From: Lachnospiraceae bacterium
GTDB lineage: Bacteria > Bacillota > Clostridia > Lachnospirales > Lachnospiraceae
DNA length: 64,000 nt
Assembly: GCA_035271185.1 (NCBI GenBank)
Contig: DATERV010000174.1
Location: 7,707-71,706, forward strand
Reading direction: 5' to 3'
A program made the position numbers and the translations under genes. The notes under the pieces are model-generated. The model was given only the letters and a program-made list of their open reading frames with translations, made no database searches and had not been told where the DNA came from. Positions 19,123 through 54,273 of the stretch are shown here, piece by piece (positions within the stretch are counted from its first letter, which is position 1; each line of letters begins with the position of its first letter).

Positions 19123-19154
19123 ATAGATTGTACATAATTCTATTAAGAGTAATT

Positions 19155-22182: not shown

Positions 22183-22281
22183 TAGCAAAATATGAGAAGT
22201 AGTAAGCAAAGAATTATAGGAAGATAGGTAGAATTATTTGTATAGTTAAAATGGGGATAAGATACTATATAGGAGGATTTT

Positions 22282-24450: not shown

Positions 24451-24481
24451 AAAACAAGCAGGCAGTGTCCTGCTTGTTTTT
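24451..24481 (+). terminator. Rho-independent terminator after the GH3 gene
   Basis: Perfect 12-bp stem AAAACAAGCAGG / CCTGCTTGTTTT, loop CAGTGT, T-rich tail. Confidence 0.85.
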
Positions 24482-24509
24482 AATATCTAAAAAAGGGGCG
24501 GGCTTAGTT

Positions 24510-27677: not shown

Positions 27678-27731
27678 TTTTATATAATTTTAATTTATCG
27701 GCTGATGTAGCCGAATATAGAGGAGGATAAT

Positions 27732-29312: not shown

Positions 29313-29335
29313 GGAATGCCAGAAAGGAAAAATTT

Positions 29336-30286: not shown

Positions 30287-30314
30287 TGGATGCGTAGGAG
30301 AAGGAGGTATTCAT

Positions 30315-32042
30315 ATGAGTGGACCGGTTGCGCCCAAGGATCCCGAAAAGAAACGCAAGGGATTCTACATAATGAGAAGTAAAGAGATAGCAGGTTCTCC
30401 AATACCGGATGGCAGTGGTACACAGTTTATCTATCTCGACTCCGGAAGAATGATCAACAGTGCCAGAATAATCGGAAATATTGAGAATGAGGAAATTCTC
30501 AAGCTGTTAACCACAACAGAGGGGTTTCGGAAGCTAGTATACAGTATTGGTGTTACGATAGAAGCTGATCACACAGAACAAGTTGTGAACTTTGTCATGC
30601 AAATGTACGGCCGAAAGGATGTTTATGGGTCTGGTACGCAGCTGACTATGCCGGTAAAAGCAGACGGTATGGAATATAGAATTAAGCTATGTGAGTGTGA
30701 CTGGTCTGATGATGACCATATACCGGGTCAGATTCGGTTTGAATTTGGTAAAGCAGAGGAATTAGCAAAGGTTTCCGTAAAGTTCTATGTAAATGATGGA
30801 TTTGAGGTACCGGATGAAATAGAAGAAGTACCTGTGGATCTGACTTCTCCTATCTATTCGGAGTTACTAAAGAAATCCCTGGTCCAGTGTGGGAATAATG
30901 CCAGATTAAAGAAAGCTTTTTTAAAAGCAAAAAATGGGGAGGATATGACAATCGCATTTATTGGCGGTTCCATTACCCAAGGCGCAGGAGCCATTCCCAT
31001 CAATACCCAGTGCTATGCTTACAAGACATTTATAGGCTTATGTAAGATGGCAGGAAAGGGTACTGAGGAAAGTATACATTATGTAAAGGCCGGAGTCGGA
31101 GGTACCCCCTCTGAATTAGGAATGCTTCGCTATGACAGAGATGTTCTGTGTGAAGGTACTGTCAAACCAGATATTGTTGTGGTGGAATTTGCAGTCAATG
31201 ACGAAGGAGATGAAACCAAGGGTGAATGTTATGATTCCCTGGTTCGCAGGATCCTGAGTGCAGAGAATAAACCGGCTGTAGTGCTTTTGTTTGCAGTATT
31301 TTCAGACGATTACAATTTACAGGAGAGACTTTCTGTGGTAGGAGAGGCTTATGACCTTCCGATGGTCAGTACCAGAGATACAGTAGTAGAACAGTTCTAT
31401 AAAAAGCCGGGTGAAGGTAGAATCGTATCTAAGAGTCAATTCTTCTATGACTGTTTCCATCCTACCAACATAGGTCATACCATAATGGCTGACGGCATTC
31501 TGCATCTCTTTCAGGTGGCTCTAGAAAAACCGGCTGATGAAGATCATCTTCAAATTGAGAAGATACCCGCACCTAAGGGTGGGGAATTCACCCATGTAAA
31601 AATGTTTGACAAAAAGATACTGAAAGAGCAGTCTGTTGCCTGTGTACATTCCTTACAATGTGGCAGCTTCAAAGCATGTGATACAGAACTGCAGGGAGTG
31701 GAAAGAAATCTGGATTTGAAGCATACCATGCAATTTCCATATAACTGGATGCATCAGGGAGGCGAAGGTAAAGGAAATGAGCCCTTTTGCATGGATATCG
31801 AATGCAGTGCACTTTTGATTATTTACAAAGATTCTGCAGCAAATCAGGTTGGTTGTGCTGAGGTATTGGTGGATGGGGAGAAAGTACTCACAATAGACCC
31901 TCATCTGATTGGTTGGACCCATTGCAATCCGCTTATTTGTTTTAGAGGAAGAGAAAAGAAGAACTATCATGTGGAAGTACGAATGAAGTCAGGTGATGAA
32001 GAAAAGGACTTTACTATATTAGGTTGGGGTTATATAGACTAA
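30315..32042 (+). CDS. SGNH/GDSL-type esterase (probable acetyl-xylo-oligosaccharide esterase) with flanking beta-sandwich-like domains
   Basis: SGNH blocks FIGGSITQG (I), GVGG (II), FAVNDEG (III), DCFHPT (V). GAAGGAGG SD. No signal peptide. Xylan-locus context. Confidence 0.8.
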   Translation: MSGPVAPKDPEKKRKGFYIMRSKEIAGSPIPDGSGTQFIYLDSGRMINSARIIGNIENEEILKLLTTTEGFRKLVYSIGVTIEADHTEQVVNFVMQMYGRKDVYGSGTQLTMPVKADGMEYRIKLCECDWSDDDHIPGQIRFEFGKAEELAKVSVKFYVNDGFEVPDEIEEVPVDLTSPIYSELLKKSLVQCGNNARLKKAFLKAKNGEDMTIAFIGGSITQGAGAIPINTQCYAYKTFIGLCKMAGKGTEESIHYVKAGVGGTPSELGMLRYDRDVLCEGTVKPDIVVVEFAVNDEGDETKGECYDSLVRRILSAENKPAVVLLFAVFSDDYNLQERLSVVGEAYDLPMVSTRDTVVEQFYKKPGEGRIVSKSQFFYDCFHPTNIGHTIMADGILHLFQVALEKPADEDHLQIEKIPAPKGGEFTHVKMFDKKILKEQSVACVHSLQCGSFKACDTELQGVERNLDLKHTMQFPYNWMHQGGEGKGNEPFCMDIECSALLIIYKDSAANQVGCAEVLVDGEKVLTIDPHLIGWTHCNPLICFRGREKKNYHVEVRMKSGDEEKDFTILGWGYID

Positions 32043-32064
32043 TCCGCAAAGATAGGAGAAAGGT

Positions 32065-33285
32065 ATGAAAATGAATCAGTTATTTGGTGGATGGCTCTTT
32101 TTGATTGGTACTGCAGCTCTGTTAGCCGGCTGTTCAAATGACAAAGTAGAGCAGACAGAAGAGAAGCAAACGGCGAGTAAAGTGACCACTGAATCGAGTA
32201 CTGAAATGGTGGAAGATTCCACTGCCGAAACAGAGATTAGTATGACGGTTGATCAAGGCCTATATGAATTGTATCAGAGTAATTATCCTATCGGGATAGC
32301 TCTTCCGAATACGGTATTTCAAAATATTGTTATGTTCGAAGATGTAATAGTTAAAAATTTTAACAGTATTACCTGTGAAAATGAAATGAAGCCTGACTTT
32401 GTGCTAGACCAGACTGTCAGCATGAATAATCTGGAAAAGACTTATCTGCGTGCAGCAGTAAGCTTTCAGAATTGTCAGCCAGCCATAGATTTTGCCTTAG
32501 AACATAATATGAAAATCAGGCTTCATACTCTGGTATGGCATAGCCAGACACCTGCCTGGTTCTTCACAGAAGACTATACAAAGGATGGAACATTGGTCAG
32601 CCGTGATGTGATGCTTGCCCGAATGGAGAATTACATAGCAGATGTACTGGGGTATTTTAATGAAAATTATCCAGGCCTTATCTATGCGGTGGATGTGGTA
32701 AATGAAGCATTTGATATAGGCAACGGAGACGAAAATGGAGTTCGTAATGTAAATAACCGCTGGTATGAAACAGTAGGAGATGATTATTATTATCAGGCTT
32801 TTGTTTTTGCCAGAAAATATGCATCAGAGGATATGAAACTCTTTTATAATGACTATGGATGTGTGGATAAGGTGAATCTTATCTTGGGGCATCTTCAAAA
32901 AGCAAAGGATGAAGGCCTCATCGATGGAATCGGGATGCAATCACATCTAAGTGTGAATGATAATATTTACATTAAGTTTGTAAATGCTGCCAAGGCTTTT
33001 TGTGATGCAGGTTATGAGGTACAGTCAACAGAATTGGATATTGGTGTGACGGAGAATACAGATTCCGCTTTTATGACACAGGGAAGAAAATATCGTTCTT
33101 TCTTCAAAAGTATGAAAAACCTGCAGGAAGAGGGATATGCCATCACCGGAATAACTGTGTGGGGGCTAAACGATACATTATCCTGGCGAACAGGTGAATA
33201 TGCCTTACTGTTTGATCAGGAGATGAATCCCAAGAAGGCGTATTTAGGTGCTATGATGGATCCTTCCATACCAGATGTGGAATAA
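32065..33285 (+). CDS. GH10 endo-1,4-beta-xylanase, lipoprotein
   Basis: Lipobox LLAGC. GH10 motifs ITCENEMKP, HTLVWH, VVNEAF (acid/base), TELDI (nucleophile). Confidence 0.93.
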   Translation: MKMNQLFGGWLFLIGTAALLAGCSNDKVEQTEEKQTASKVTTESSTEMVEDSTAETEISMTVDQGLYELYQSNYPIGIALPNTVFQNIVMFEDVIVKNFNSITCENEMKPDFVLDQTVSMNNLEKTYLRAAVSFQNCQPAIDFALEHNMKIRLHTLVWHSQTPAWFFTEDYTKDGTLVSRDVMLARMENYIADVLGYFNENYPGLIYAVDVVNEAFDIGNGDENGVRNVNNRWYETVGDDYYYQAFVFARKYASEDMKLFYNDYGCVDKVNLILGHLQKAKDEGLIDGIGMQSHLSVNDNIYIKFVNAAKAFCDAGYEVQSTELDIGVTENTDSAFMTQGRKYRSFFKSMKNLQEEGYAITGITVWGLNDTLSWRTGEYALLFDQEMNPKKAYLGAMMDPSIPDVE

Positions 33286-33305
33286 CTTAAAAACAGGAGC
33301 AGAAT

Positions 33306-34412
33306 ATGTGGATGAAATGTAAAGGGAAAAAATGGATGGCTTTACTATTGTGTATCATAACTGCAACCGGCTTGACCGGTTGTGGCAGTGAAGCACAGGA
33401 GGAAGATTATCTGATTGTGGAACAGCAAGAAGAACCAATTACCTACACCCTTGGTACAGTTACAATGGGAGATGTAGAAAAGACATTGCGAATAAGTTGT
33501 GTATATCAGCAATTACATGATGAGGAGGTCTGTTTTCAAGTAAGTGGGAAAAAGATATCCAAGGTATATGTGAAAGAAGGGGATATTGTAAAGAAAGGGC
33601 AGCTACTGGCTGAGCTTTCCGGTGGGAGCCTTCAGGATGAAATCAACAGACTGGAATACCAGATTACTCGAAACAACATTCTGCTGGAACAGACTCTGGC
33701 AGATAAAAAAAATGAGATTGATTTACAGAATCAGTATTTTGAGTTATGGACAAAACAGAGCTGGGATGATGTAGTAAATCTGCGTGATGCCCTGTCACAG
33801 ATTGAGAAGAATTATGCTTACGCCATTGAAGATTACCAGGATGCTATAGCATTGGACCAGAAGCAGATTCAAAGCTTGAAATCTGAAGCTGCGCAAAGTA
33901 ATTTGTATGCAGGTATGTCAGGTACAATATCCTATATCATGGATAATCTGGAAGGCAGTACCTGTGCCAAGGATAAAGTGGTGATGAAGATCATAGACAG
34001 TACAGAATGTCTGTTTGCAGTAGATGAGCCGGAATATACCTCCTATTTCACTGAGGGAACAGGTGTCGATCTTAATATCAATACCGGAACAGCTTCCGGC
34101 AACTATATTGTATATCCGTATCAGATTAAAAACTGGACAGATACCTTATTATTTAGTCTTTCTGATGAAGGTGATATCCCTACCATTGAGGTAGGAACCA
34201 CGGGTATGTTGCGTATGGTCTTAGAACAGAAAACCCAGGTACTTACGGTACCGATTTCTGCTGTACATAATGCTGACGGGAAAGCTTATGTGTATGTTCT
34301 GGGAGAGAATAATCTCAGGGAAGTACAGTGGATTACTGCTGGACTTTATGGAGATGATACGGTGGAAGTAATAGATGGACTTTCAGAAGGGGATACGGTA
34401 ATAACGCGATGA
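33306..34412 (+). CDS. Membrane-fusion-protein (HlyD/MacA-like periplasmic adaptor) lipoprotein, single unit
   Basis: Lipobox LTGC. Lipoyl-like half motifs (VKEGDIVKKGQLLAEL / AGMSGTISYI) around a coiled-coil. C-terminal LTVPISAVHNADGKAYVYVL...VEVIDGLSEGDTVI. Confidence 0.8.
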   Translation: MWMKCKGKKWMALLLCIITATGLTGCGSEAQEEDYLIVEQQEEPITYTLGTVTMGDVEKTLRISCVYQQLHDEEVCFQVSGKKISKVYVKEGDIVKKGQLLAELSGGSLQDEINRLEYQITRNNILLEQTLADKKNEIDLQNQYFELWTKQSWDDVVNLRDALSQIEKNYAYAIEDYQDAIALDQKQIQSLKSEAAQSNLYAGMSGTISYIMDNLEGSTCAKDKVVMKIIDSTECLFAVDEPEYTSYFTEGTGVDLNINTGTASGNYIVYPYQIKNWTDTLLFSLSDEGDIPTIEVGTTGMLRMVLEQKTQVLTVPISAVHNADGKAYVYVLGENNLREVQWITAGLYGDDTVEVIDGLSEGDTVITR

Positions 34413-36472
34413 ATAAATGTTTAAGAATATGTGTGATCGGTCTTCTTTGTGGCAGTCTTGCCTTTAGTGGTTGTGGCAAAAGTCAGACCGACGAAGAAAC
34501 GGTTACATTAATTGATCCGATCAGTGCAGTTACCAATGCAGAAGCTGCAGAATATCGAAATATATATAATGCCAAGACATACTCTACCAGTGTATATCCT
34601 CAAACAAAAGAATATACATTTGAAGAGGCATCCATGTTTACAGGTTTTGGTGCGTATCCAGGTGGTAAAGTGAATACAGGAGATGTTCTTGCTTATACAG
34701 ATACCGGTAATATTGAAGACCAGATAGAGGATATGGAAGAAAAACTGGTGAAATTGCAAAAACAATTTCAGGAATATACCCATGATATGGATAAAAAACT
34801 GAAAACCATTGATGCCAAACTGAAAGAGTGTAATAGACTTGGGGGAACCTATCTGCTAAATTTTGAAAGAGAGACCCTACAGCGGAAAGGTCTTAAGGCC
34901 GACCTGGATTATCAAACCCAGATTTATCAACTGGATTATACTTATTATGAAAACCTGCTTAAGGAATTAAGTGAGAAGAAGAATAAATATGAGGTGATAG
35001 CAACTGCGCAGGGAGAAGTTGTGGCTATCCAGAACTACTCGTACGGAGATCAGGTGAATGATGAAACCATGATCATGGCTGTTGGTGACTTGAGCCAGAA
35101 GGAACTGAAGTGTAATTACATAAACAAGGGTACCATTTCCAAAGCAGTGGATGTATATGCCATATTTGATGGAGTACGGTATGAAATTGATTACCAGCCA
35201 ATGGATACGGAAGAGTATACAAAATTGTCCAAGCAGGGTGCCACAATATATTCCACCTTTCTTCTGAATGAGGATGCTGCGGATATTAGTGTAGGAGATT
35301 TTGGAATAATTGTTGTGGTCACAGACGAGAGGGAGCATGCACTGTCTGTTTCTAGCTCAGCTGTTCATAGAGATGCCACAGGTACCTTCGTATATGTGTT
35401 AAAAGATGGAGCCAGTGTAAACACACCCGTAACGACGGGATTATCAGACGGACAGTTTACCGAAATAATTTCTGGTATCACCAAAGAAGACAAAGTTCTT
35501 GTGGATGAGATTAGAACCTATGGAAAAAACACGACCACTATAGCTTACGGAACCTTCAGCAATAGTTTTGAAGGAGTGGGATATATGTATTACCCTGACA
35601 ACACCGCCGTACTGAATACGTCAGAGTATGGTACCATGTATCTGCAGGATATGAAGGTAGCTATGTATCAGCATGTGGAAAAAGGAGATGTCATTTGTAC
35701 TGTTCGTGTTATTCCAGACAGCATTGCCTTTGAGAGAGCCAAAACTGAGTTAATGAGGTTGAATGAACGAATACAGGATTTACAGGAAGATGTGGAAGAA
35801 GAGGAAACTGCGGATCAGAGAGAATCAAGGGAAAAGGCAATTGCAATAAAACAGGAAGAAATTCAAAAAGTACAGGAAAAGATTGCTGACATAGAGAAGG
35901 ATGCGTCAACGAAAGCTCTATATGCAGATAAGACCGGCATTGTGCTCTGGATAGATGATCTGGAGAAAGAATCCATTTTATCCAAGAATCAGATGGTTGT
36001 ACAGATTGCTAATGAAGATACCTGTTACGTGATTGTTGAGGATAAAAATCAGCTGCTTAACTATGGGAATGAAGTAACCATTACTTATTCAGACTTATCA
36101 GGTGAGGAAAGCACGACCCAGGGAATGGTTGCTAAAATGAATAACGCAGGTGTCAGTCAGAAGCTGCAAATGGACTGGACACTGATTCTGCTACCCAATG
36201 AAGTGATAGGAGATATGTCTGTAACAGTACAGGGAGGAGACGGATGGTGGAACAGAAGCATGTTTGATGTTGATGCTTCCATCCGTGAAATGCAGAATGT
36301 GTTGATTGTTCCTAAAAAAGCAGTTACGGAGATTGGTGGGCTAACCTATGTTGATGTCATAGATGAGGATGGAAATGTGGTAACCACCAGCTTTATAGCA
36401 GGTGGCTTTGATTCAGAAAACTATTGGGTAGTAGAAGGACTCACGGAAGGAATGAAAATATGCTTAAAGTAA
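34409..36472 (+). CDS. Tandem-duplicated membrane-fusion-protein-like lipoprotein (two MFP units in one chain)
   Basis: Lipobox FSGC. Unit 1 (~aa 45-366): GGKVNTGDVLAYTD, coiled-coil, ATAQGEVVAIQ, LSVSSSAVHRDATGTFVYVL...KEDKVLVD. Unit 2 (~aa 375-687): VEKGDVICTVR, acidic coiled-coil, ADKTGIVLWID, LIVPKKAVTEIGGLTYVDVI...LTEGMKICL. ATGA overlap with the upstream gene. Confidence 0.75.
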   Translation: MNKCLRICVIGLLCGSLAFSGCGKSQTDEETVTLIDPISAVTNAEAAEYRNIYNAKTYSTSVYPQTKEYTFEEASMFTGFGAYPGGKVNTGDVLAYTDTGNIEDQIEDMEEKLVKLQKQFQEYTHDMDKKLKTIDAKLKECNRLGGTYLLNFERETLQRKGLKADLDYQTQIYQLDYTYYENLLKELSEKKNKYEVIATAQGEVVAIQNYSYGDQVNDETMIMAVGDLSQKELKCNYINKGTISKAVDVYAIFDGVRYEIDYQPMDTEEYTKLSKQGATIYSTFLLNEDAADISVGDFGIIVVVTDEREHALSVSSSAVHRDATGTFVYVLKDGASVNTPVTTGLSDGQFTEIISGITKEDKVLVDEIRTYGKNTTTIAYGTFSNSFEGVGYMYYPDNTAVLNTSEYGTMYLQDMKVAMYQHVEKGDVICTVRVIPDSIAFERAKTELMRLNERIQDLQEDVEEEETADQRESREKAIAIKQEEIQKVQEKIADIEKDASTKALYADKTGIVLWIDDLEKESILSKNQMVVQIANEDTCYVIVEDKNQLLNYGNEVTITYSDLSGEESTTQGMVAKMNNAGVSQKLQMDWTLILLPNEVIGDMSVTVQGGDGWWNRSMFDVDASIREMQNVLIVPKKAVTEIGGLTYVDVIDEDGNVVTTSFIAGGFDSENYWVVEGLTEGMKICLK

Positions 36473-39270
36473 TGTTGCAAAAGCTGTGGCATAAAAAATG
36501 GATGGTGATGTGTCTATTACTGGGAAGTATATTGCTGATTGCTACAGTGGTCAGCTTTCCTATGTACAGAAATGCTGCCTTTGACAGGATGCTACAGGAT
36601 GAATTTCAGGAATATTTAGCAGAAAAAGGGGAATGGCCTGGTAGAAATGAATTTATTATGGTTTCCAAAAAGGATGCCGGCGGAAAAGCCATGAACAAGA
36701 TGGAAACTTTGATGCAGAGTATATACCAGGATTTGGGTGTGACAGAGAAACAGACAACTTATTTGTATGGTCTTGGTAAAGCGGAAGCCCATTCTCTGAT
36801 GAACAGGGAAGATGTGAATGCGATTTCCTTAAAGATTGGATTTCTATCTGATTTAGAGAACCATGCCAAATTGCTTTCAGGAGAAATGTATTCCAGTAAA
36901 GGATTGACAGATGATGGCTGCTATGAAGCAGTAATCAGCCAGGCATGTATGGTAAGTGCCAATCTTCTGGTGGGAGAAACATTAGAGATGGATGCGCTGA
37001 AGGATGGAGACGGAAATCCGATTCGTATCAAGATTGTGGGTGTATTTGCTGAGGATAGTAACAGTGATTTTTATTGGCAGACATCTGCTGACGAAATGGA
37101 CGGTTTTTGCCTGATTAGTGAAGAACTGTTCCGTTCCAAGTTTACCAAGGAGAATGCAGGTAAGTTTACGATTACCTGTAAATATAGTACATTATTTGAA
37201 TATGAGGATATAAAAGCCATTGATGTAAAGCATCTAAAGGAGCAGACAACCTATCTGACAGAGGAAAGTCCATTTCGTAGTACCCTGTCAAAGCCGGATT
37301 ATGCGGGAATACTGGAGCAGTTTGAAAGTAAAAAGGGCAGAATTGAAGCAACCTTGTTTATTTTACAGATTCCGGTATTAGTCTTGTTATGTGCGTTCCT
37401 CCTTATGATATCGGGACAGATGTATGATATGGAAAGAAATGAGATTTCTGTTATTAAGAGCCGTGGTAGTTCTGGCGGGCAGATTTTCCGATTGTATTTG
37501 TATCAGAGTATTTTTCTGACATTATTTGGTGCACTGGCCGGCTTACCATTGGGAAGTTTATTTTGCAGACTTTTGGGAGCAGCCAGAAATTTCCTTGAAT
37601 TTTCTATTCGAGGAGAATTACATATTTCATACACAAGGGATGTGCTTTTATATTTGCTGGTGTCAATAGTGGCATCCATTCTGATTATGACTTTACCAGC
37701 AATCAAGCACAGTAAGTTGTCCATCGTGAAGTTAAAACAGCAGAAAGCTTTAAAAAAGAGATCATGGTGGGAAAAATGCTTTTTGGATGTTATCTGCCTG
37801 GGTGTATCCCTATATGGATTTTATTCCTTCCGTGGCAACGAAGAAGCACTGGAAATTAACGTATTAAGGGGAGAAGCACTGGATCCTCTTTTATATATCA
37901 GTTCATCCTTGTTCATCGTGGGCATGGGACTTTTATTCCTTCGTTTACGGCCACTGTTAGTCAGATTTATCTATTTTCTGGGGAAACGTTATTGGCAGCC
38001 GGCAAGTTATGCCTCGTTTACAGAAAATATTAAGAATGGCAGAAAACAACAATCTATTATGCTTTTTATGATACTGACCATATCATTGGGTATGTTCCAT
38101 GCCATAGTAGCCAGAACCATTCTGCAAAATGCCACAGATAATTCGGAGTATATTTGCGGAACTGATTTGATGGTCAAGGAAATCTGGACCAATAATGGTG
38201 GTCTTTCTGCAGATGGTTCTCCTACAGAGTTACAGTATTCCGAACCTGATTATGTAAAATATGCACGACTTGATTGCGTATCAGCATATACAAGAGTCAT
38301 GTATGATGAAAAGGCATATATACCGAGTACCGGTAACAAACGTCAGAATATCATACTAATGGGCATCCATACCAAGGAGTTTGGCGAAATCACCAATGTG
38401 TCCAGAGATCTTTTAGAGAAGCCTTACAATACTTATTTAAATGAATTGGCGGCTGTTCCAAATGGTGTTTTGGTTTCCCGCAATTTTGAGGGCCAGCTTG
38501 GCTACAAAGTCGGAGACATCATTACCTACAACAATAATGATAAGTTTAGCGCAACTGGCAAAATTGTAGATTTTGTGGACTACTGGCCAGGGTATATATC
38601 AAATGAAAAACAACTGCTGCCTGACGGAAGTGTTGAAAACAAAGATAACTTTCTGGTAGTGGCTAACTATGGACCTTTGAAGCAGAGCTGGGGTGCGGTA
38701 CCCTATGAAGTATGGATGACTCTAAAAGAAGGAGCCAGCACAGATAATTTTTATGACTGGGTATCAGCTGAAAATATAAAGGTTACCAAGTATGTGGATA
38801 AGGGAGCTACACTCACCGGTGTGGTAGAAGATCCTTTATTACAGGGTACCAACGGTGTGCTTACCATGGGCTTTATTGTCACAATGATTCTTTGTATCAT
38901 GGGCTATCTGATTTATTGGATCATGTCCATCCGTTCAAGAGAGATGTTGTTTGGTGTATTACGTGCGTGTGGTATGCATAAAGGAGAAGTGTTCCATATG
39001 CTTATCAATGAACAGATTTTTTCAGGTGTATTGTCCATTTTAGCAGGCCTTGGAATCGGAAAACTCACGTCAGAATTGTTTGTACCAATGCTTCAGACTG
39101 CGTATGCAGCAGCAAATCAGGTTTTGCCCATGCAATTGATTACGAATACACAAGATATGGTCAGGCTGTATGGTGTGGTGATTCTGGGCATGTTGGTATG
39201 TCTGCTTGTGCTGATTTTACTGGTATTTAAACTAAATGTGACCAAAGCATTGAAGTTAGGGGAAGAATAA
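36460..39270 (+). CDS. Fused double-FtsX (MacB-type) ABC permease, ~10 TM with two large extracytoplasmic domains
   Basis: Two halves, each TM - ~230-260 aa extracytoplasmic domain - 3 TM, with FtsX-type loops (ERNEISVIKSRGSSGGQIF; SREMLFGVLRACGMHKGEVF) and 2 linking TMs. The track TTG start at 36424 overlaps the upstream gene by 49 nt. ATG 36460 (MLKVMLQKLW) has GGAAGGA upstream. Confidence 0.85.
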   Translation: MLKVMLQKLWHKKWMVMCLLLGSILLIATVVSFPMYRNAAFDRMLQDEFQEYLAEKGEWPGRNEFIMVSKKDAGGKAMNKMETLMQSIYQDLGVTEKQTTYLYGLGKAEAHSLMNREDVNAISLKIGFLSDLENHAKLLSGEMYSSKGLTDDGCYEAVISQACMVSANLLVGETLEMDALKDGDGNPIRIKIVGVFAEDSNSDFYWQTSADEMDGFCLISEELFRSKFTKENAGKFTITCKYSTLFEYEDIKAIDVKHLKEQTTYLTEESPFRSTLSKPDYAGILEQFESKKGRIEATLFILQIPVLVLLCAFLLMISGQMYDMERNEISVIKSRGSSGGQIFRLYLYQSIFLTLFGALAGLPLGSLFCRLLGAARNFLEFSIRGELHISYTRDVLLYLLVSIVASILIMTLPAIKHSKLSIVKLKQQKALKKRSWWEKCFLDVICLGVSLYGFYSFRGNEEALEINVLRGEALDPLLYISSSLFIVGMGLLFLRLRPLLVRFIYFLGKRYWQPASYASFTENIKNGRKQQSIMLFMILTISLGMFHAIVARTILQNATDNSEYICGTDLMVKEIWTNNGGLSADGSPTELQYSEPDYVKYARLDCVSAYTRVMYDEKAYIPSTGNKRQNIILMGIHTKEFGEITNVSRDLLEKPYNTYLNELAAVPNGVLVSRNFEGQLGYKVGDIITYNNNDKFSATGKIVDFVDYWPGYISNEKQLLPDGSVENKDNFLVVANYGPLKQSWGAVPYEVWMTLKEGASTDNFYDWVSAENIKVTKYVDKGATLTGVVEDPLLQGTNGVLTMGFIVTMILCIMGYLIYWIMSIRSREMLFGVLRACGMHKGEVFHMLINEQIFSGVLSILAGLGIGKLTSELFVPMLQTAYAAANQVLPMQLITNTQDMVRLYGVVILGMLVCLLVLILLVFKLNVTKALKLGEE

Positions 39271-39965
39271 TGAATAACGAAGATAAAAAAATGATTGAAC
39301 AAAACAGTATTGTTGTACAGCATGTAAACCGGATATTTCCGGTAGCTGGTGGTGAATTTCAGGCACTGAAGGATATAAATGCTGAGATTCCACAGGGTGT
39401 ATTGGCAATTTTAAGAGGAAGGTCCGGTTCAGGTAAAACCACCTTGCTGAATATACTGGGAGCGTTAGATCAGCCTACATCCGGAAAAGTATATATTGGT
39501 GGCAGGGATATCGGAAAGTTATCCGATACAGAAAGAGAAAACTTAAGACGTACGAAAATAGGATTTGTATTTCAGTCAGTTTCGCTGATTCCTACTATGA
39601 ATGCCTTTCAGAATGTAGAATTTTCCCTACGGCTGGCAGGTGTGAAGATTGGTCGGGAACAACGAGTGGAGGAATGCCTGAAAATGGTGGGACTAGGAAA
39701 CAGAATGCACCATATGCCGGCTGAAATGTCCGGCGGTGAGCAGCAGAGAGTCGCTATTGCCAGAGCAATTGCTCACAAACCGGAGATTCTATTTGCAGAT
39801 GAGCCTACTGCCGAACTGGATAGTGCTATGGCGGCAGAAGTAACCAAGCTATTTCAGGATATGACCAGAAAAGAACATGTTACCATCATCATGACAACCC
39901 ATGATACAGGCCTGATGGATGCAGGTGATATGATTATGGAGCTTGAAAATGGGGAAAGAAGGTAA
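39270..39965 (+). CDS. ABC transporter ATP-binding protein (MacB/LolD-type), ATPase A
   Basis: Walker A GRSGSGKTT, signature MSGGEQQRVAIARA, Walker B ILFADEPTAELD, H-loop TTHD. Start overlaps the permease stop. Confidence 0.93.
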   Translation: MNNEDKKMIEQNSIVVQHVNRIFPVAGGEFQALKDINAEIPQGVLAILRGRSGSGKTTLLNILGALDQPTSGKVYIGGRDIGKLSDTERENLRRTKIGFVFQSVSLIPTMNAFQNVEFSLRLAGVKIGREQRVEECLKMVGLGNRMHHMPAEMSGGEQQRVAIARAIAHKPEILFADEPTAELDSAMAAEVTKLFQDMTRKEHVTIIMTTHDTGLMDAGDMIMELENGERR

Positions 39966-39967
39966 AT

Positions 39968-40855
39968 ATGCCGGAAATGATGATACAGGCAGATGGCCTG
40001 GTAAAGATTTATAAAACAAAGCAAACTGAAGTCTTAGCATTGCAGGGTCTTGATTTGCAGGTTGAGGAAGGAGAACTCACAGCCCTAATTGGGAACAGTG
40101 GTAGCGGTAAATCTACTTTCCTGAATATGATTGGCGGTTTGGACAGACCCAGTGCAGGTTCCTTAATTGTGGGTGGAAAGAATCTGTTTACCATGACAGA
40201 AAGAGACTTGGTAGTCTATAAACGAGATACGGTAGGGTTTGTATGGCAAAACAATGCCAGAAACCTGTTACCGTACCTGACAACACTTGAAAATATAATG
40301 CTGCCCATGTATCTATCTGATGCTCATAAAAAGAAGGAGAAAGCATTAGAGTTATTGGATAAAGTAGGAATGTCATCCAAGAAGCATAGCAGACTGAATA
40401 CACTTTCAGGTGGAGAACAACAGCGTATCGCGATTGCGATTGCACTTGCTAATTCACCAAAATTATTATTGGCTGATGAACCTACCGGTAGTGTTGATTT
40501 TAAAACAGCAGATTATATTTATGATATTTTTACAGAACTGTACAGGAATGGCCAGACCATTTTGATTGTTACCCATGATATAGCTTTGTCTAAGAAGGTA
40601 AAACGTGTTGTTGCAATCAGAGATGGTAAAATAAGCAGTGAGCGCATCTTAAAGGAAAAATATGCAGACAGACTAAAGGAAGTATCCATTGACTGGCGAG
40701 CAGAGGACACCCAGGATGAGTATGCAATTGTGGATAAAGCCGGGCGTGTGCAGATTCCAAGAGAGGTACTTACTGCCATGCAACTAAATGGAAATAAGGT
40801 GAAACTGGAGTTACAGGGTGAAAAGGTAATCATCAGTGGGCCTGAGGTGCAGTAG
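39968..40855 (+). CDS. ABC transporter ATP-binding protein, ATPase B, with C-terminal AbrB/SpoVT-like tail
   Basis: Walker A GNSGSGKST, LSGGEQQRIAIAIA, LLLADEPTGSVD, VTHD. An extra ~65 aa tail contains VDKAGRVQIPREVLTAMQLNGNKVKLELQGEKVII. Confidence 0.9.
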   Translation: MPEMMIQADGLVKIYKTKQTEVLALQGLDLQVEEGELTALIGNSGSGKSTFLNMIGGLDRPSAGSLIVGGKNLFTMTERDLVVYKRDTVGFVWQNNARNLLPYLTTLENIMLPMYLSDAHKKKEKALELLDKVGMSSKKHSRLNTLSGGEQQRIAIAIALANSPKLLLADEPTGSVDFKTADYIYDIFTELYRNGQTILIVTHDIALSKKVKRVVAIRDGKISSERILKEKYADRLKEVSIDWRAEDTQDEYAIVDKAGRVQIPREVLTAMQLNGNKVKLELQGEKVIISGPEVQ

Positions 40856-40873
40856 TCAAAGGAAGCATACTAA

Positions 40874-43198
40874 ATGAAGAAAAAGCAAAAGAGTTTTATG
40901 GAGGTGCCGGAGGATATACTCCGGCACCTCTCCACATGGAGCATCGATAAAAGTAATATTTTGTTTACATCCATAACAGATCTTGATTGTAATGGTGAAT
41001 ATGCAGATGGTTTTGTGATTTTAACTGCAAAACAGGTCTGCCTTTTTCATAATACTATAAAAAACGAAAATGTACATATTTACAGAGGGTATTTTGGACA
41101 ACCCGATGGTGTACCTGCAAAACAGGACTTTAAGGGATGTGTATATGACATTACCCAAATAGAACGCATTTATATAGAGATGGGAGTTGGATGTAATTTA
41201 TTAATTGCAATCATACAGGGGCAGGAATACTGCCTTACCATGTTTACCAATTTACATAAGAAGACAATGAGCCAGCTGGTTAGGGGTATAGAGGAAATAC
41301 GGGGTGGCGGCACCTTCAGTACACCTGTAAAGGAAGAAGAGTGTTGTCCAAAATGTGGAAGAATGTATCCTGATAGTGTCAGGAAAATCTGCCCTGACTG
41401 CATGGACAGAAGAAACATTTTTGTAAGAGTTTTAGAGTACTTTAAACCTTATGTATTGCAGTTTACCTTAATGGTGGTAATCATTGTAGCAGGGTCATTG
41501 ATCAATCTTTTATGGCCTTATTTAAGCGGCACTGTCCTTTTTGATAAAATTCTGAATCAGAACGAAGCATTTTTAGAGCAGGTAGGAATTCCTGCCGGAG
41601 GGTTCGTAACAGCACTTTTCGTTCTGGTACTGACTATGCTAGTAACCAGAATGCTTCAAGTAGTATTCCAGATTCTGCAGGGAGTTCTGACTGCACAGAT
41701 GGTGGTAAATGTAGTTCGTGATATAAAAAAGAAAGTATTTCGTTCCATGGGACGATTATCCATCAGTTTTTACAGAAGCAGACAGACGGGCGCCCTGATG
41801 ACCAGGGTAATGGGAGACGCCGAGAGAATAACAGATTTCTTTGTGGATGGAGCGCCTTATATCCTGATCCATGGTTTCACCATACTTGCGACCTTGATTG
41901 TTATGTTTGGAATAAATCCGTTGATGGCGTTCCTGACAATAGCCCTTTATCCCTTTATGGTGGTAGTGAATGTTTATTTTAGGCCTAAGATCTGGATCAT
42001 GTTTGGCAGAAGACACAGAGCAGAACGTTCTCTGAACAGTGGAGTAAATGATAATCTCACAGGCGCCAGAGTGGTGAAGAGCTTTGGTCAAGAGAATAGG
42101 GAAATTCAAAGGTTTTCAACGAATAACAAGAAGTTGAAGGAAGCAGAGATCCTCATTAGTTACAGACAGAATTATCTTACTTTAGTATATAGCGGTGTAC
42201 AGAGTCTAGCCCGTATGTTGATCATGGGAGTAGGTGTATACTTTATTATGACAGGCATGGGCAGGAAAATGGAGCTTGGTACCCTGATAACCATGCTTGC
42301 TTATGCGGATCAGCTACAGAACCCAATGAATTTCTTTTCCAGATTACCTATGCGCTTTGCAGAAAGCATGAATAGTGCACAGCGTATTTTTGAGATTATC
42401 GATGCGGTACCGCAGGTACAGGAGAGTAAAAGTCCCATTGCGCTGACAAATCCCTGTGGGGATATTAGCATGGATAAGGTGAGCTTTGGATATGAGACTA
42501 GTAAACCGGTACTAAAGAATGTTTCTCTGCATATTCCTGCAGGAAGTATGCTGGGAATTGTAGGGCGTTCTGGTGCAGGGAAAACAACCTTGGTAAATCT
42601 GATTTCCAGAATGTATGACACGGATGAAGGAAGTATTTCCATTGATGGGATAAATGTAAAAGAATTATCCTTTAGGGAGTTAAGGAAGAATGTAGCTATG
42701 GTATCCCAGGAAACCTATATTTTCATGGGTACTGTTGCTGAAAACATAGCATATGCAGACAAAACAGCAGATCTTTTTCATATCATGCAGGCTGCTAAAT
42801 TGGCCGGTGCTCATGAATTTATCATGGAGATGCCGGATGGGTACGATACAAAAATCGGAGCATCGGGAAGAGAATTGTCCGGTGGTGAAAGGCAACGTAT
42901 TTCCATAGCAAGAGCGATATTAGCCAATCCTAAAATATTGATTTTGGATGAAGCAACTGCTTCTGTTGACACAGAAACAGAACAGATTATCCAAAAATCC
43001 ATTAACTATTTGGTGGCTGGCCGAACGACTATTTCTATTGCACACAGACTTTCAACACTTCGTGATGCAGATTACCTTGTGGTGATTGATCATGGAGAGA
43101 TAACGGAACAGGGAACTCATGAGGAACTGGAAGCGCTGAAAGGCACCTACTATAAACTGATGGAATTGCAGACTAAGGCTCTTGCCATGAAGAATTAG
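40874..43198 (+). CDS. Type-I ABC exporter (TMD-NBD half transporter) with ~190-aa N-terminal cytoplasmic PH-like + zinc-ribbon extension
   Basis: CCPKCGRMYPDSVRKICPDC at aa 157-176, six TMs. NBD with GRSGAGKTT, LSGGERQRISIARA, ILILDEATASVD, IAHRL. Confidence 0.9.
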   Translation: MKKKQKSFMEVPEDILRHLSTWSIDKSNILFTSITDLDCNGEYADGFVILTAKQVCLFHNTIKNENVHIYRGYFGQPDGVPAKQDFKGCVYDITQIERIYIEMGVGCNLLIAIIQGQEYCLTMFTNLHKKTMSQLVRGIEEIRGGGTFSTPVKEEECCPKCGRMYPDSVRKICPDCMDRRNIFVRVLEYFKPYVLQFTLMVVIIVAGSLINLLWPYLSGTVLFDKILNQNEAFLEQVGIPAGGFVTALFVLVLTMLVTRMLQVVFQILQGVLTAQMVVNVVRDIKKKVFRSMGRLSISFYRSRQTGALMTRVMGDAERITDFFVDGAPYILIHGFTILATLIVMFGINPLMAFLTIALYPFMVVVNVYFRPKIWIMFGRRHRAERSLNSGVNDNLTGARVVKSFGQENREIQRFSTNNKKLKEAEILISYRQNYLTLVYSGVQSLARMLIMGVGVYFIMTGMGRKMELGTLITMLAYADQLQNPMNFFSRLPMRFAESMNSAQRIFEIIDAVPQVQESKSPIALTNPCGDISMDKVSFGYETSKPVLKNVSLHIPAGSMLGIVGRSGAGKTTLVNLISRMYDTDEGSISIDGINVKELSFRELRKNVAMVSQETYIFMGTVAENIAYADKTADLFHIMQAAKLAGAHEFIMEMPDGYDTKIGASGRELSGGERQRISIARAILANPKILILDEATASVDTETEQIIQKSINYLVAGRTTISIAHRLSTLRDADYLVVIDHGEITEQGTHEELEALKGTYYKLMELQTKALAMKN

Positions 43199-43207
43199 GA
43201 GAGTGAA

Positions 43208-43750
43208 ATGGAACAGAAATTTGAATTATCACAAATGGAGCAGGAAACGGAAGAAATGCTTCGAATCCGGTATTTGAAGAAAGAGAACGCTCTTTTTTCC
43301 AGAACGGGCACGGGTTTTTTAAGCCTTCAGTTGGGGGAAGAATTTTATCCCCGAGTAAAAGTAGTGAGAATGTATCCGTTTACACAAAAGGACGAGTTTA
43401 TTTCAATTCGTACATCGGATGAGCATTCCAGGGAAATCGGGATTATTGAAAAACTAAGCGATATGGAGCCTGATACATTGGTAATGCTGAAAGAGCAGCT
43501 GGCTTTAAGGTACTTCACGCCGATCATTCATAAAATTAATAACATTAAAGATGAATATGGTTATGCATACTTTGATGTAGAAACAGATCATGGCAACTGT
43601 CGTTTTACAATTCAGATGGGAAGCAATGCAGTGGTTCATTTATCCGAATACCGGATACTGATACTGGACATTGACGAAAACAGATTTGAGATTTCTGATC
43701 TGACTAAACTGACGGCTAGGGAGAGGAAGAAGCTTGATTTATTTCTCTAG
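43208..43750 (+). CDS. Small cytoplasmic protein, DUF1854-like (recalled family name, unverified)
   Basis: 180 aa with no TM or signal peptide, wedged between two ABC exporter genes (9- and 17-nt gaps). I recall the DUF1854 family having this gene context. GGAGAG SD. Confidence 0.7.
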   Translation: MEQKFELSQMEQETEEMLRIRYLKKENALFSRTGTGFLSLQLGEEFYPRVKVVRMYPFTQKDEFISIRTSDEHSREIGIIEKLSDMEPDTLVMLKEQLALRYFTPIIHKINNIKDEYGYAYFDVETDHGNCRFTIQMGSNAVVHLSEYRILILDIDENRFEISDLTKLTARERKKLDLFL

Positions 43751-43767
43751 GAAATAAGGAGAACAAA

Positions 43768-45963: not shown

Positions 45964-45981
45964 AAAAATTCTCACGACCAT

Positions 45982-46908: not shown

Positions 46909-47063
46909 ATTTTGCTACCTCCCATGTATGGCAAATATCAGTTTTTGTTAGCACATGTTACAAAGGATATTTTAACATTTTAATCATAAAATGTAAATAT
47001 TACTTTTTTTAAACAGATAGATAGTAAGAAGGGTATAAATGTTGCACAATAGAATTCTATTCT

Positions 47064-47090
47064 TTCACAAATATGTAAGCAATTTGTGAA
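47064..47090. promoter_or_regulatory. Perfect 9-bp inverted repeat TTCACAAAT-N9-ATTTGTGAA in the AraC / SBP divergent intergenic region (candidate operator)
   Basis: Read directly. It lies ~45 bp upstream of an extended -10-like TGTATAAT (47134-47141) and ~110 bp upstream of the SBP start codon. Confidence 0.4.
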
Positions 47091-47197
47091 TATTAAATAG
47101 CAAAATATAAGGAGACGGCGGTAAAAAAGAAAATGTATAATATAAATGTGATGCAGAGACATGAGAAATTCGTAAATTGTAAGATTGGAGTGGGTTT

Positions 47198-50155: not shown

Positions 50156-50181
50156 TTATTTGTAGCAGTTGGAGGAGAGCA

Positions 50182-51120: not shown

Positions 51121-51166
51121 CGGGAATGAAAATAAATACCCGCAGTAGCGGAGATAGGGAAGCAAT

Positions 51167-52066: not shown

Positions 52067-52080
52067 GATGGAGGCTTGAT

Positions 52081-53580: not shown

Positions 53581-53597
53581 ATGGAATGGAGGCAAAA

Positions 53598-54254: not shown

Positions 54255-54273
54255 CTGGGAGGAAAGGTTAGAT

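Follow-up and report, generated by a model that had tools for sequence, protein, structure and literature searches.

A predicted multi-adaptor type VII ABC system encoded in a xylan-utilisation operon of the Lachnospiraceae

Gene content and genomic context of the cassette

The window analysed comprises 64,000 nucleotides of the genome of a gut Lachnospiraceae bacterium (GCA_035271185.1, contig DATERV010000174.1, positions 7,707 to 71,706). ORF analysis distinguished five genes on the forward strand at 33306-40855, each abutting or overlapping the next, which code for two adaptor lipoproteins (MFP1 and MFP2), a permease and two ATPases (ATP1 and ATP2; Table 1). MFP1 and MFP2 overlap by 4 nt, and MFP2 and the permease by 13 nt when the permease is taken to start at the ATG at 36460, which has GGAAGGA upstream (the alternative ATG at 36472 would leave an overlap of only 1 nt). 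The permease and ATP1 genes overlap by 1 nt, and a 2-nt gap separates ATP1 from ATP2. The 4-nt and 13-nt overlaps are retained in forty-nine and forty-two related loci, respectively. The ORF coordinates and domain searches bear out the initial annotation of five translationally coupled genes encoding four kinds of component. With over 1100 close permease homologues on record, the genes can be considered real and conserved, rather than chance ORFs. At 50 % identity the permease homologues form 3325 clusters with E < 1e-3 and 748 with E < 1e-30, all of which are full length (approximately 930-980 aa).

Table 1 Features of the cassette and its surroundings, in window coordinates
Feature	Position	Strand	Description
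Upstream xylan-degradation genes	17992-33285	+	GH8, GH115, GH3, GH2, GH43, unknown 316-aa protein, 575-aa GDSL esterase, GH10 lipoprotein
GH10 lipoprotein	32065-33285	+	Lipobox LAGC; ends 20 nt ahead of MFP1
MFP1	33306-34412	+	368-aa lipoprotein, lipobox LTGC; single MacA/RND-type adaptor unit (adaptor a)
MFP2	34409-36472	+	687-aa lipoprotein, FSGC; two complete adaptor units (b, c)
Permease	36460-39270	+	936 aa, 10 TM (4+2+4), two FtsX domains; fused type VII ABC permease
Ectodomain 1	36628-37296	+	Permease residues ~57-279, between TM1 and TM2 (AlphaFold2 secondary structure, hydropathy)
Linking helices TM5 and TM6	37765-37983	+	Permease residues ~436-508, connecting the two FtsX halves (hydropathy, AlphaFold2)
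Ectodomain 2	38155-38832	+	Permease residues ~566-791, between TM7 and TM8 (hydropathy, AlphaFold2)
ATP1	39270-39965	+	231-aa LolD/MacB/FtsE-type ABC ATPase, without extension
ATP2	39968-40855	+	295-aa LolD/MacB-type ABC ATPase, ~70-aa C-terminal extension
SpoVT/AbrB-like (swapped-hairpin) domain	40727-40834	+	ATP2 C-terminus (profile searches)
Two type IV ABC exporters	40874-45963	+	Both full length, DUF1854 gene between them; start 18 nt past ATP2
AraC-family regulator	45982-46908	-	Part of companion block 45982-52066
Sugar ABC importer	within 45982-52066		985-aa binding protein and two permeases

No terminator-like site was found in the 20-nt gap between the GH10 gene and MFP1, and the 18-nt gap from ATP2 to the exporter genes is likewise without a terminator. 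The exporter pair accompanies the cassette in about ten of sixty-eight related loci. Of the thirty-eight loci, counted at species level, whose flanks extend for 9 kb or more on each side, thirty-five carry genes for xylan-type glycoside hydrolases or esterases no further than 10 kb from the cassette. The commonest companions of the cassette are importer genes (33/38 loci) and AraC-family regulators (23/38). The binding protein of the importer in the window shows a weak, sub-threshold match to CBM35. The immediate neighbours in related loci are co-directional GH115, GH43, GDSL or GH10 genes, separated by short gaps and arranged in several gene orders, with GH95 found in twelve loci, and xylan genes also flank the cassette in the distant relatives L094/L149 and L140. 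The location beside a xylanase, previously described as unexplained, is thus not accidental but an instance of a conserved association with xylan loci, and the cassette forms part of a xylan-utilisation operon in this lineage. As the sixty-eight xylan-linked loci are mutually related (Acetatifactor and allied Lachnospiraceae), the synteny count partly reflects shared descent. Furthermore, most of the distant family members occur in unrelated surroundings (sporulation genes, a polysaccharide deacetylase and housekeeping genes), which argues that the core biochemical activity is not xylan-specific.

Adaptor units

Profile searches matched MFP1 to RND_mfp (9e-24), MacA and the Pfam families HlyD_2 and Biotin_lipoyl_2, and solved MacA structures (4dk0/5nik) could be aligned to its residues 46-366. 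MFP2 gave no match to Pfam. Two RND_mfp stretches were distinguished in it by profile search, and its AlphaFold2 model (pLDDT 85) resolves into two adaptor units, both complete and both bearing an alpha-hairpin. Unit b spans residues ~40-375 (hairpin helices 102-143 and 149-192) and unit c residues ~376-687 (a shorter hairpin, 438-460 and 468-499). Foldseek comparison of the model returned MexC-like, MacA, AcrA and MexA structures over approximately 340-350 columns, corresponding to a single unit each time. The lipobox cysteine of MFP2 is invariant across fourteen homologues. Both adaptor genes were found in 60/60 loci, with an MFP1 orthologue in every one of the sixty related loci with enough upstream DNA.

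In relatives at 33-47 % identity, three adaptor genes collinear with MFP1, MFP2-N and MFP2-C are followed by permease, ATP1-like and ATP2-like genes, and the split b and c genes correspond to positions 1-402 and 403-715 of the MFP2 HMM. Because these distant members have three separate adaptor genes, the 687-aa MFP2 is a gene fusion, and the b-c fusion occurs in several locus groups widely separated by permease identity. On comparative sequence grounds it offers a hint, of the Rosetta-stone kind, that b and c may be neighbours in the assembly. The earlier proposal that the adaptors fill three positions which are not equivalent (2 x 3 = 6) draws comparative support from the three separate collinear genes, together with the fusion in several groups. 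In the AlphaFold2 model, the hairpin helices are approximately 42-44 residues long in unit b and 23-32 in unit c, and such unequal lengths would fit a uniform six-hairpin tube less well.

Permease

Domain searches identified two FtsX stretches in the permease, and hydropathy and the AlphaFold2 model (pLDDT 80, pTM 0.70) indicate ten helices in a 4+2+4 arrangement. BLASTP comparison of the N-terminal and C-terminal halves yielded no significant match between the ectodomain regions. The best Foldseek matches of the model were E. coli YbbP (9ge6_A and 9ge7_A; E 3e-17, full length), followed by BceB and then LolE/C and MacB. Domain-sized matches to the periplasmic domains of LolE, YknZ and MacB were obtained at ranks 35-44, the output not distinguishing ectodomain 1 from ectodomain 2. 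As here, two linking helices lie between the halves of YbbP and BceB (PMC5985334). The permease topology is of the known YbbP type; the two FtsX halves and two ectodomains first noted for this fused 10-TM protein are confirmed, but they are not without precedent, since the protein falls in the YbbP topology class (PMC5985334).

ATPases and the composition of the motor

As initially annotated, ATP1 and ATP2 are distinct ATPases (32 % identity) with intact motifs, each containing Walker A, Q-loop, signature, Walker B (DE), D-loop and H-loop sequences. Their HMMs separate the paralogs clearly in distant relatives, and the best NCBIfam and PDB matches of ATP2 are to LolD. Among related loci, identity is approximately 70-87 % for the ATPases, 60 % for the permease and 30-50 % for the adaptors, with ATP2 the most conserved protein of the cassette (~74-87 %).

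The C-terminal domain of ATP2, absent from the initial annotation, carries an approximate motif (...EEYAVLDRAGRVQIPRELLEELGL.GNKVKLE..DGKIVI...) which is conserved family-wide. The tail matches PF04014 at E 0.0018 (18.6 bits, under the gathering score), while among family ATP2 tails 22/28 match PF04014 (best 4.5e-7) and twelve match MraZ; comparison of the tail profile with AbrB structures gave E 0.018. None of the solved ABC ATPases among the matches listed (E <= 1e-30) aligns to ATP2 past residue ~236. The AbrB/MazE-type fold is normally built from two chains, and self-pairing of ATP2 would therefore fit better than a single ATP2 per complex.

ATP1 is kept in all fifty-eight related loci with enough downstream DNA, whereas ATP2 is present in forty-eight and absent from ten, comprising a clade of nine species and one independent case. 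In the ATP2-less loci MFP1, MFP2, the permease and ATP1 are intact, and neither permease half shows any change in its coupling-helix region. A fixed ATP1-ATP2 heterodimer is therefore not universal, and the earlier description of the motor as obligately asymmetric is too strong. A possible, though rather unlikely, reading is that an ATP1 homodimer can power the permease alone, with ATP2, which would dimerise through its tail, serving as an alternative or regulatory subunit, for example in trans-inhibition or some other kind of control, as known for the C-terminal domains of MalK or MetN. The loss of ATP2 in two independent lineages with the remainder of the cassette and its coupling regions preserved, and the family-wide conservation of a tail whose fold takes two chains, are consistent with this. 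The fused permeases YbbP and BceB also use homodimeric ATPases (PMC5985334, PMC11466899). However, both paralogs are ancient, neighbours in 48/58 loci and conserved above the level of the permease, and the two coupling-helix regions are unlike each other and each nearly invariant, as specific pairing with two distinct ATPases would predict. Furthermore, the ATP1-only genomes are metagenome bins, in which an unlinked copy of ATP2 could still occur.

Proposed function

On the basis of sequence and structural models, the five genes are predicted to encode one hetero-oligomeric type VII (MacB-superfamily) ABC system. The explanation that best accommodates the evidence as a whole, tentative and somewhat short of an even chance, is a multi-adaptor type VII system of the xylan operon which would perform mechanotransmission-type extrusion via an adaptor conduit. 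Binding and hydrolysis of ATP by an ATPase dimer on the two coupling helices would move the long stalk helices and both ectodomains. By analogy with MacAB, Spr0693-0695 and YbbAP, the substrate would not cross the bilayer, but would be taken up in the outer leaflet or between membrane and wall, squeezed into a conduit built by the lipid-anchored adaptors and released past the cell wall. The conduit would most simply be a 2:2:2 hexamer, in which each paralog occupies one of three non-equivalent positions per permease half. Precedents include MacB and YbbAP for mechanotransmission (PMC5985334, PMC12646458), the hexameric Gram-positive adaptors YknX and Spr0693 (PMC8277102, PMC5768738), and TriAB for a pump which requires two different adaptors (PMC8277102). 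Speculatively, an amphipathic or hydrophobic compound that the cell encounters or makes during growth on complex decorated xylan is the probable substrate.

The cassette may instead encode a partner-handling mechanotransducer, in which ectodomain motion acts on a protein partner, as in FtsEX-EnvC/PcsB, LolCDE and YbbAP-TesA, and the adaptor-like lipoproteins form trans-wall scaffolds rather than a channel. It could, for example, activate, position or extract the GH10 xylanase, which is anchored in the membrane, or the giant sugar-binding lipoproteins that the locus encodes. This appears unlikely, although YbbP, the closest structural relative, has a hydrolase partner (PMC12646458), type VII systems often work mechanically on partners (PMC11466899, PMC5985334), the asymmetric halves are reminiscent of LolC/LolE, and the unequal hairpins would suit a scaffold equally with a tube. 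The GH10 lipoprotein gene adjoins the cassette here and in L002, and in about ten other loci a less similar GH10 homologue follows it, either immediately or within a few genes. However, GH10 occurs within 10 kb in only 8/38 long-flank loci, and distant family members are without any glycoside hydrolase neighbour. No TesA-, EnvC- or LolA-like partner gene is evident among the annotated neighbours, the translated 575-aa GDSL protein starts without a hydrophobic signal sequence, and the characterised adaptor-dependent MacB systems are all pumps.

Similarly improbable is a generic defensive pump against antimicrobial peptides, bile salts or detergents, comparable to Spr0693-0695/YknWXYZ, which would have no xylan-specific role and would simply have been captured in the xylan locus and passed on with it within a single radiation of the Lachnospiraceae. 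Characterised Gram-positive adaptor-dependent MacB systems do give peptide protection (PMC8277102, PMC5768738), most family members at 33-45 % identity lie in non-carbohydrate settings, and kinship of the sixty-eight loci explains part of the synteny count. However, the cassette is kept within xylan clusters despite several rearrangements and varying flanking glycoside hydrolase genes, lies only tens of nt from xylan genes on the same strand, adjoins such genes also in L094/L149 and L140, and has no Bce-type two-component sensor adjacent to it within the window.

Comparison with known systems

The cassette belongs to a large, uncharacterised and unnamed Lachnospiraceae family, and no paper or database name covering it was found. 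Its signature combines three paralogous membrane-fusion units with a YbbP-type fused 10-TM permease, whose two ectodomains differ, and a pair of ancient ATPase paralogs, of which the second ends in a SpoVT/AbrB-like tail. Domain and structure matches agree with the initial assignment to adaptor-bearing MacB-superfamily systems in a monoderm lineage, and the composition is, as then proposed, unlike every characterised Gram-positive example when compared with YknXYZ, Spr0693-0695 and BceAB (PMC8277102, PMC5768738, PMC11466899, PMC5985334).

In E. coli YbbAP (PDB 9ge6/9ge7; PMC12646458), too, a single permease chain of 10 TM comprises two FtsX halves joined by two linking helices and carries two ectodomains, and a LolD-like ATPase is encoded separately. 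The sequences are nevertheless distant, with approximately 12 % identity and a score of 17.7 bits to the NCBIfam YbbP model, the cut-off of which is 999. YbbAP has a single ATPase gene, lacks membrane-fusion proteins and works with a soluble SGNH hydrolase, whereas the present cassette, found in a monoderm host, combines two ATPase paralogs with three adaptor units. BceAB, the second-best structural match, similarly has a 10-TM single-chain FtsX-type permease, but it has only one ectodomain (TM7-TM8), is driven by a BceA homodimer, lacks an adaptor and is partnered by a two-component system (PMC11466899), and none of these features applies to the cassette. LolCDE, likewise of type VII, has two permease halves that are not identical, and works on lipid-anchored substrates at the outer leaflet. 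It differs in that the halves are separate 4-TM proteins, that LolD forms a homodimer and that adaptors are absent, and it passes lipoproteins to LolA, a homologue of which is not among the annotated neighbours here.

Spr0693-0694-0695 of S. pneumoniae and YknWXYZ of Bacillus resemble the cassette as adaptor-dependent members of the MacB superfamily in hosts that lack an outer membrane, and share its four-domain adaptor fold and ATPases of the LolD/MacB clade (5xu1_A, E 1e-47). They comprise a single adaptor that forms a homohexamer, a homodimeric 4-TM permease and one ATPase, and confer peptide or toxin resistance from outside carbohydrate operons (PMC5768738, PMC8277102). All eight type VII systems of B. 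subtilis have homodimeric ATPases (PMC8277102 section 5.7.2, PMC5768738, PMC11466899, PMC5985334). As in the cassette, different adaptor paralogs are combined in TriABC-OpmH of P. aeruginosa, whose adaptor set is hetero-oligomeric because two different paralogs are required, and from which the structure of a TriA-TriB chain fused by engineering is available (6vej). TriABC-OpmH is, however, an RND transporter of a diderm with an outer-membrane channel, and employs two adaptor paralogs as against the three encoded here.

Organisation of the cassette

The cassette consists of five genes with overlapping or abutting ends, which encode adaptor a (MFP1; an adaptor being a membrane-fusion protein unit), the fused adaptor units b and c (MFP2), a two-half FtsX-type permease and two ABC ATPase paralogs (ATP1 and ATP2), and the gene lengths and junctions given in the initial annotation were found to be correct. 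The permease start codon (ATG at 36460) is preceded by GGAAGGA. The 4-nt overlap recurs in 49 related loci and the 13-nt overlap in 42, which supports the chosen start codons. Nearly every gene in the 64-kb window is located on the plus strand, and the GC skew is strongly positive throughout. Antisense "shadow" ORFs of up to 960-1053 aa, located opposite the permease or adaptor genes of the related loci L007, L015 and L022, are a product of the GC-skewed composition, and would be called as genes in naive ORF lists.

Features of the cassette and of its flanking regions in the window
Feature	Position	Strand	Length	Remarks
Conserved protein	29336-30286		316 aa	
GDSL/SGNH esterase	30315-32042		575 aa	SGNH domain central (residues ~213-390)
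MFP1	33306-34412	+	368 aa	
MFP2	34409-36472	+	687 aa	overlaps MFP1 by 4 nt
Permease	36460-39270	+	936 aa	overlaps MFP2 by 13 nt
ATP1	39270-39965	+	231 aa	overlaps permease by 1 nt
ATP2	39968-40855	+	295 aa	2-nt gap from ATP1
Type IV ABC exporters with DUF1854 gene between	40874-45963		774 and 731 aa	exporters full-length
Importer cluster	47198-56841			
NHL-repeat/TPR protein	52081-53580			importer cluster
Yip1-domain membrane protein	53586-54254			importer cluster
DUF5696 protein	54208-56841			importer cluster

Adaptor proteins

MFP1 carries the lipobox LTGC, matches the RND_mfp (9e-24), MacA, HlyD_2 and Biotin_lipoyl_2 profiles of Pfam and NCBIfam, and can be aligned from residue 46 to residue 366 with the structures of MacA. 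The lipobox cysteine of MFP2 is invariant and RND_mfp is matched in two stretches of this protein, while no Pfam match was obtained and a sequence search against the PDB chains returned nothing relevant, so that it was identified by fold search alone. The AlphaFold2 model of MFP2 (pLDDT 85, pTM 0.68) includes two complete adaptor units, the first with a long hairpin (helices 102-143 and 149-192) and the second with a shorter one (helices 438-460 and 468-499). Foldseek matched this model to a MexC-like adaptor, MacA, AcrA and MexA (E ~1e-15) over ~340-350 columns, and thus to one adaptor unit at a time. Both adaptor genes are present in all sixty related loci with sufficient upstream DNA. Three conserved adaptor paralogs and a recurrent b-c fusion are what would be expected if each paralog occupied one of three non-equivalent ring positions per transporter half, which lends support to the earlier proposal that two sets of three adaptors may form the six-membered ring. 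The unequal hairpin lengths in the MFP2 model call for mild caution as to a six-fold ring.

Permease

Pfam FtsX is matched in two stretches of the permease, for which hydropathy analysis predicts ten hydrophobic helices in a 4+2+4 arrangement. A four-helix FtsX bundle with a large ectodomain between its first two helices occurs twice, both by hydropathy and in the AlphaFold2 model (pLDDT 80, pTM 0.70; ectodomains at ~57-279 and ~566-791), and beyond the FtsX core the two halves gave no significant BLASTP match to each other. The best Foldseek match of the model is Escherichia coli YbbP (9ge6_A and 9ge7_A; E 3e-17, full length), followed by BceB, LolC/E and MacB, with HrtB and FtsX also matched. 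Precomputed matches to MacB_PCD exist for many permease homologues. Since this Pfam domain was undetected in the window permease at E <= 0.01, a Porter/Sabre fold is not claimed for the two ectodomains past the domain-level Foldseek matches. The two coupling-helix regions, approximately QMYDMERNEISVIKSRG and IRSREMxFGVLRACGMHKGE, differ from one another and each is nearly invariant.

ATPases and the C-terminal tail of ATP2

ATP1 and ATP2 share 32% identity and belong to the LolD/MacB/FtsE clade, with FtsE, DevA, LolD and MacB as best NCBIfam matches and LolD, Spr0694 and MacB included among the best PDB matches. Both possess the Walker A motif, the Q-loop, the signature, a Walker B that includes the catalytic Glu, the D-loop and the H-loop; the Walker A/B, signature and H-loop motifs had been noted previously. 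Searches with ATP2 retrieved near-orthologues only, under generic names. The initial feature list had overlooked the C-terminal tail of ATP2, which comprises ~70 residues with a motif (approximately ...EEYAVLDRAGRVQIPRELLEELGL.GNKVKLE..DGKIVI...) conserved across the family. Among the matches listed, no solved ABC ATPase aligned past ATP2 residue ~236. The window tail matches PF04014 (MazE/SpoVT-AbrB) below the gathering score (E 0.0018; 18.6 bits against 24.7). Among twenty-eight diverse family tails, twenty-two match PF04014 at E <= 0.1 (best 4.5e-7) and twelve match MraZ, and a profile built from ATP2 tails matches AbrB and MazE structures (E 0.018-0.2, with AbrB at 0.018). The tail is thus likely, although not proven, to be an AbrB-like swapped-hairpin domain, a fold normally formed by two chains.

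ATP1 is encoded in 58/58 related loci and ATP2 in 48/58, and both paralogs are better conserved than the permease. Nine of the ten loci lacking ATP2 belong to one clade and one is independent; no ATP2 remnant was found in them by tblastn, and the remaining cassette genes are intact. The strong conservation of the ATPases and the two distinct, near-invariant coupling regions would argue for specific pairing, while the absence of ATP2 from ten loci and the two-chain AbrB fold would speak against an obligate heterodimer and leave room for a motor of alternative ATPase homodimers in place of a fixed ATP1-ATP2 heterodimer. The permease coupling helices do not differ between loci with ATP1 only and those with both ATPases, and hence this comparison cannot separate the heterodimer and homodimer models. 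The assembly had been described as obligately asymmetric; the paralog pattern would be in keeping with this for the adaptors, but an obligate ATPase heterodimer is not established, because ATP2 is missing from ten loci in which the cassette is otherwise intact, and the AbrB fold is two-chained.

Size and architecture of the family

The cassette belongs to a large uncharacterised family. More than 1100 close permease homologues of equal length, mostly labelled Lachnospiraceae, could be distinguished, and an exhaustive search of representatives at 50% identity yielded 3325 clusters at E < 1e-3 and 748 at E < 1e-30, all of them full length (~930-980 aa) down to 30% identity. The family includes very abundant human-gut Lachnospiraceae, with one cluster incorporating 1563 members and one member sequence found on 888 contigs. 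A scan of close relatives, with one genome per species, provided sixty-eight loci (permease identity 50-66%) in Acetatifactor, Roseburia, Lachnobacterium and unclassified Lachnospiraceae, and eighty further loci (32-60% identity) were obtained when metagenomes were scanned with a profile made from distant family members.

Most loci at 33-47% identity encode three separate adaptors (~350, 370 and 385 aa), the second and third of which correspond to positions 1-402 and 403-715 of an MFP2 HMM. Lipoboxes are present in the first two; the third has either a lipobox or a standard signal peptide. Downstream of the adaptor genes come, in this order, the permease gene and the genes for two ATPases, one ATP1-like (~226 aa) and one ATP2-like (295-440 aa). 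The b-c fusion observed in the window occurs in several locus groups that are widely separated in terms of permease identity. As judged from these comparisons, the signature of the family is a fused permease combined with three paralogous adaptors and two paralogous ATPases, and all of the duplications are older than the divergence of the sampled members.

Simpler relatives, with one adaptor and a permease, are represented by the related loci L071 and L072. In L130 (8415-11282) a second fused permease gene follows the ATPases, and others among the variant loci L138, L141, L145 and L150 have three adaptor genes and a permease, with no ATPase gene found in the 0-8 kb of downstream DNA that could be read. 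Several of the variant loci are located on metagenome contigs with JGI Ga or JGI numbers. The L130-type and ATPase-less distant loci suggest additional architectural variants.

Genomic context and association with xylan loci

In the window, the cassette is located within a long run of plus-strand genes. It is preceded by GH8, GH115, GH3, GH2 and GH43 genes, one gene without a family, a GDSL esterase and a GH10 lipoprotein, and is followed by two ABC exporters with a DUF1854 gene and then by a divergent AraC regulator, beyond which a sugar importer is encoded whose binding protein measures 985 aa. The gaps at the cassette borders measure 20 and 18 nt and contain no terminator-like sites. When 27500-47400 was scanned for promoters and terminators, the counts did not exceed those expected from shuffled sequence, and they neither support nor oppose an internal promoter.

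Of the 38 related loci in which both flanks extend over 9 kb or more, 35 have homologues of the xylan-type enzymes of the window within 10 kb and 33 have the importer genes. The nearest neighbours are mostly co-directional GH115, GH43-like, GDSL or GH10 genes, separated by short gaps and arranged in several orders. A GH95 gene was found in twelve related loci. The distant relatives L094/L149 and L140 are likewise flanked by GH10, GH115, GH43 or GDSL genes; most of the remaining distant relatives have no such flanks. In an abundant human-gut Eubacterium/Clostridium sp. the genes on either side of the cassette are those for SpoVA proteins, for an AI-2E transporter and for a deacetylase of polysaccharides. 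At L153/L154 (14569-15639) the deacetylase directly follows a six-gene cassette, with SpoVAD, SpoVAC and the AI-2E transporter before it, and this gene content hints at a role tied to the cell wall or sporulation in that branch. A carbohydrate link for the whole family was rejected, because no dominant context emerged when 119 genes neighbouring the cassette in distant relatives were surveyed with Pfam. The association of the cassette with the xylan locus in this lineage is thus real and conserved, while the core activity of the family is not xylan-specific.

Several neighbouring genes also recur. The 316-aa protein, without a significant Pfam or NCBIfam match, is conserved across the related xylan loci, where a tandem pair of paralogs often immediately precedes MFP1 (e.g. 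L029, L037 and L049), and the 575-aa esterase is conserved at 55-68% identity in most related loci. Both type IV exporters have an N-terminal extension of ~170 aa with CxxC...CxxC zinc-ribbon-like motifs; they score below the cut-off of two NCBIfam models, 'cyanophycin metabolism-associated ABC transporter' and 'CphA_assoc_prot', and the trio with the DUF1854 gene lies behind the cassette in approximately ten of the sixty-eight related loci. The unusual importer cluster, in which the binding protein has a weak CBM35 match and two permeases are encoded, is kept as a set beside the cassette in many related loci.

Proposed function

The data demonstrate the composition, folds, conservation and operon embedding of the cassette, while its mechanism can be proposed from characterised relatives (PMC5985334, PMC12646458, PMC5768738, PMC8277102). 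By this analogy, an ATPase dimer seated on the two coupling helices would drive the stalk helices and ectodomains, pushing a substrate at the membrane's outer face into an assembly of lipid-anchored adaptors extending through the wall. In this mechanotransmission scheme, no substrate would pass through the membrane itself. Speculatively, this substrate could be an amphipathic compound tied to growth on decorated xylan. Two-stage export is also conceivable, with the type IV exporters carrying a substrate from the cytoplasm to the outer face and the MacB-type pump acting thereafter.

Two rival explanations must be weighed against export of such a compound. A partner-handling mechanotransducer would work on the GH10 or binding lipoproteins, and the gene for the GH10 lipoprotein lies directly upstream of MFP1 in the window; the distant loci without xylan-gene flanks offer no such partners. 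A generic defensive pump, merely carried along with the xylan locus, would agree with a core activity that is not xylan-specific and sits less easily with the conserved association in this lineage. It seems improbable that the cassette forms an integral, ATP-powered part of extracytoplasmic xylan acquisition, in which the assembly of three adaptor paralogs spans the wall and mechanical strokes of the permease feed or thread xylan chains, or bring the GH10 and binding proteins, held by lipid anchors, into place, with no detoxification, and which would be the first type VII system with heterodimeric ATPases and a hetero-hexameric ring. If true, its function would parallel that of the energised capture which TonB/SusCD supplies in Bacteroidota. 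Far less is understood of polysaccharide loci in Gram-positive gut bacteria than in Bacteroidota, and the cassette represents a conserved tie of an envelope machine to hemicellulose utilisation in the former.

Comparison with known systems

Both the permease fold and the complete-motif LolD/MacB/FtsE-clade ATPases place the cassette in the type VII ABC (MacB/FtsX) superfamily. As in YbbP, two FtsX units and two ectodomains are combined with a pair of linking helices in one permease chain, and this fused topology is that of the known YbbP class (PMC5985334). However, the permease scores 17.7 bits on the NCBIfam ABC_perm_YbbP equivalog (cut-off 999) and 33.8 on the ADOP duplicated-permease model (cut-off 622). 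Furthermore, YbbAP lacks an adaptor, relies on one ATPase gene, whose product YbbA forms a homodimer, and is partnered by an SGNH hydrolase of the periplasm, whereas the cassette encodes two ATPases and three adaptor units. The GDSL protein of the window was ruled out as a TesA-like partner, as direct reading revealed no signal sequence. In BceAB-type transporters the only ectodomain lies between TM7 and TM8, and a BceRS-like two-component system is encoded alongside. The two ectodomains of the cassette permease and the lack of a neighbouring two-component system ruled out a Bce-like role in sensing; no histidine kinase or response regulator was found among the scanned window neighbours.

The description of YknXYZ, Spr0693-0695 and BceAB in the initial annotation agrees with the literature (PMC8277102 section 5.7.2, PMC5768738, PMC11466899). 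As in MacAB-TolC, Spr0693-0695 and YknXYZ, a cognate membrane-fusion protein is encoded with the transporter, but the MacAB-like pumps have a homodimeric 4-TM permease, a single ATPase species and a single adaptor species as homohexamer, while the permease of the cassette is fused, with 10 TM helices, and is accompanied by ATPases of two kinds and adaptors of three. TriABC provides a precedent for one pump with two different adaptors (PMC8277102). Of the eight type VII systems of Bacillus subtilis, every one is listed with an ATPase homodimer, and the YbbP type is not represented (PMC11466899). The literature searched contained no type VII system with three paralogous adaptors, with a pair of ATPase paralogs or with an ATPase that has an AbrB-like tail, and no MacB-type system in a Gram-positive xylan or other polysaccharide locus, and the database names of the homologues are generic. 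All parts of the cassette are members of known superfamilies, while their combination is undescribed in the literature searched. The cassette may include the first heterodimeric motor among the type VII ABC systems, and would be useful to dissect how a six-fold adaptor ring is seated on a two-fold transporter, as it represents a natural system with a distinct polypeptide at every position that is normally symmetric in a MacB-type pump.
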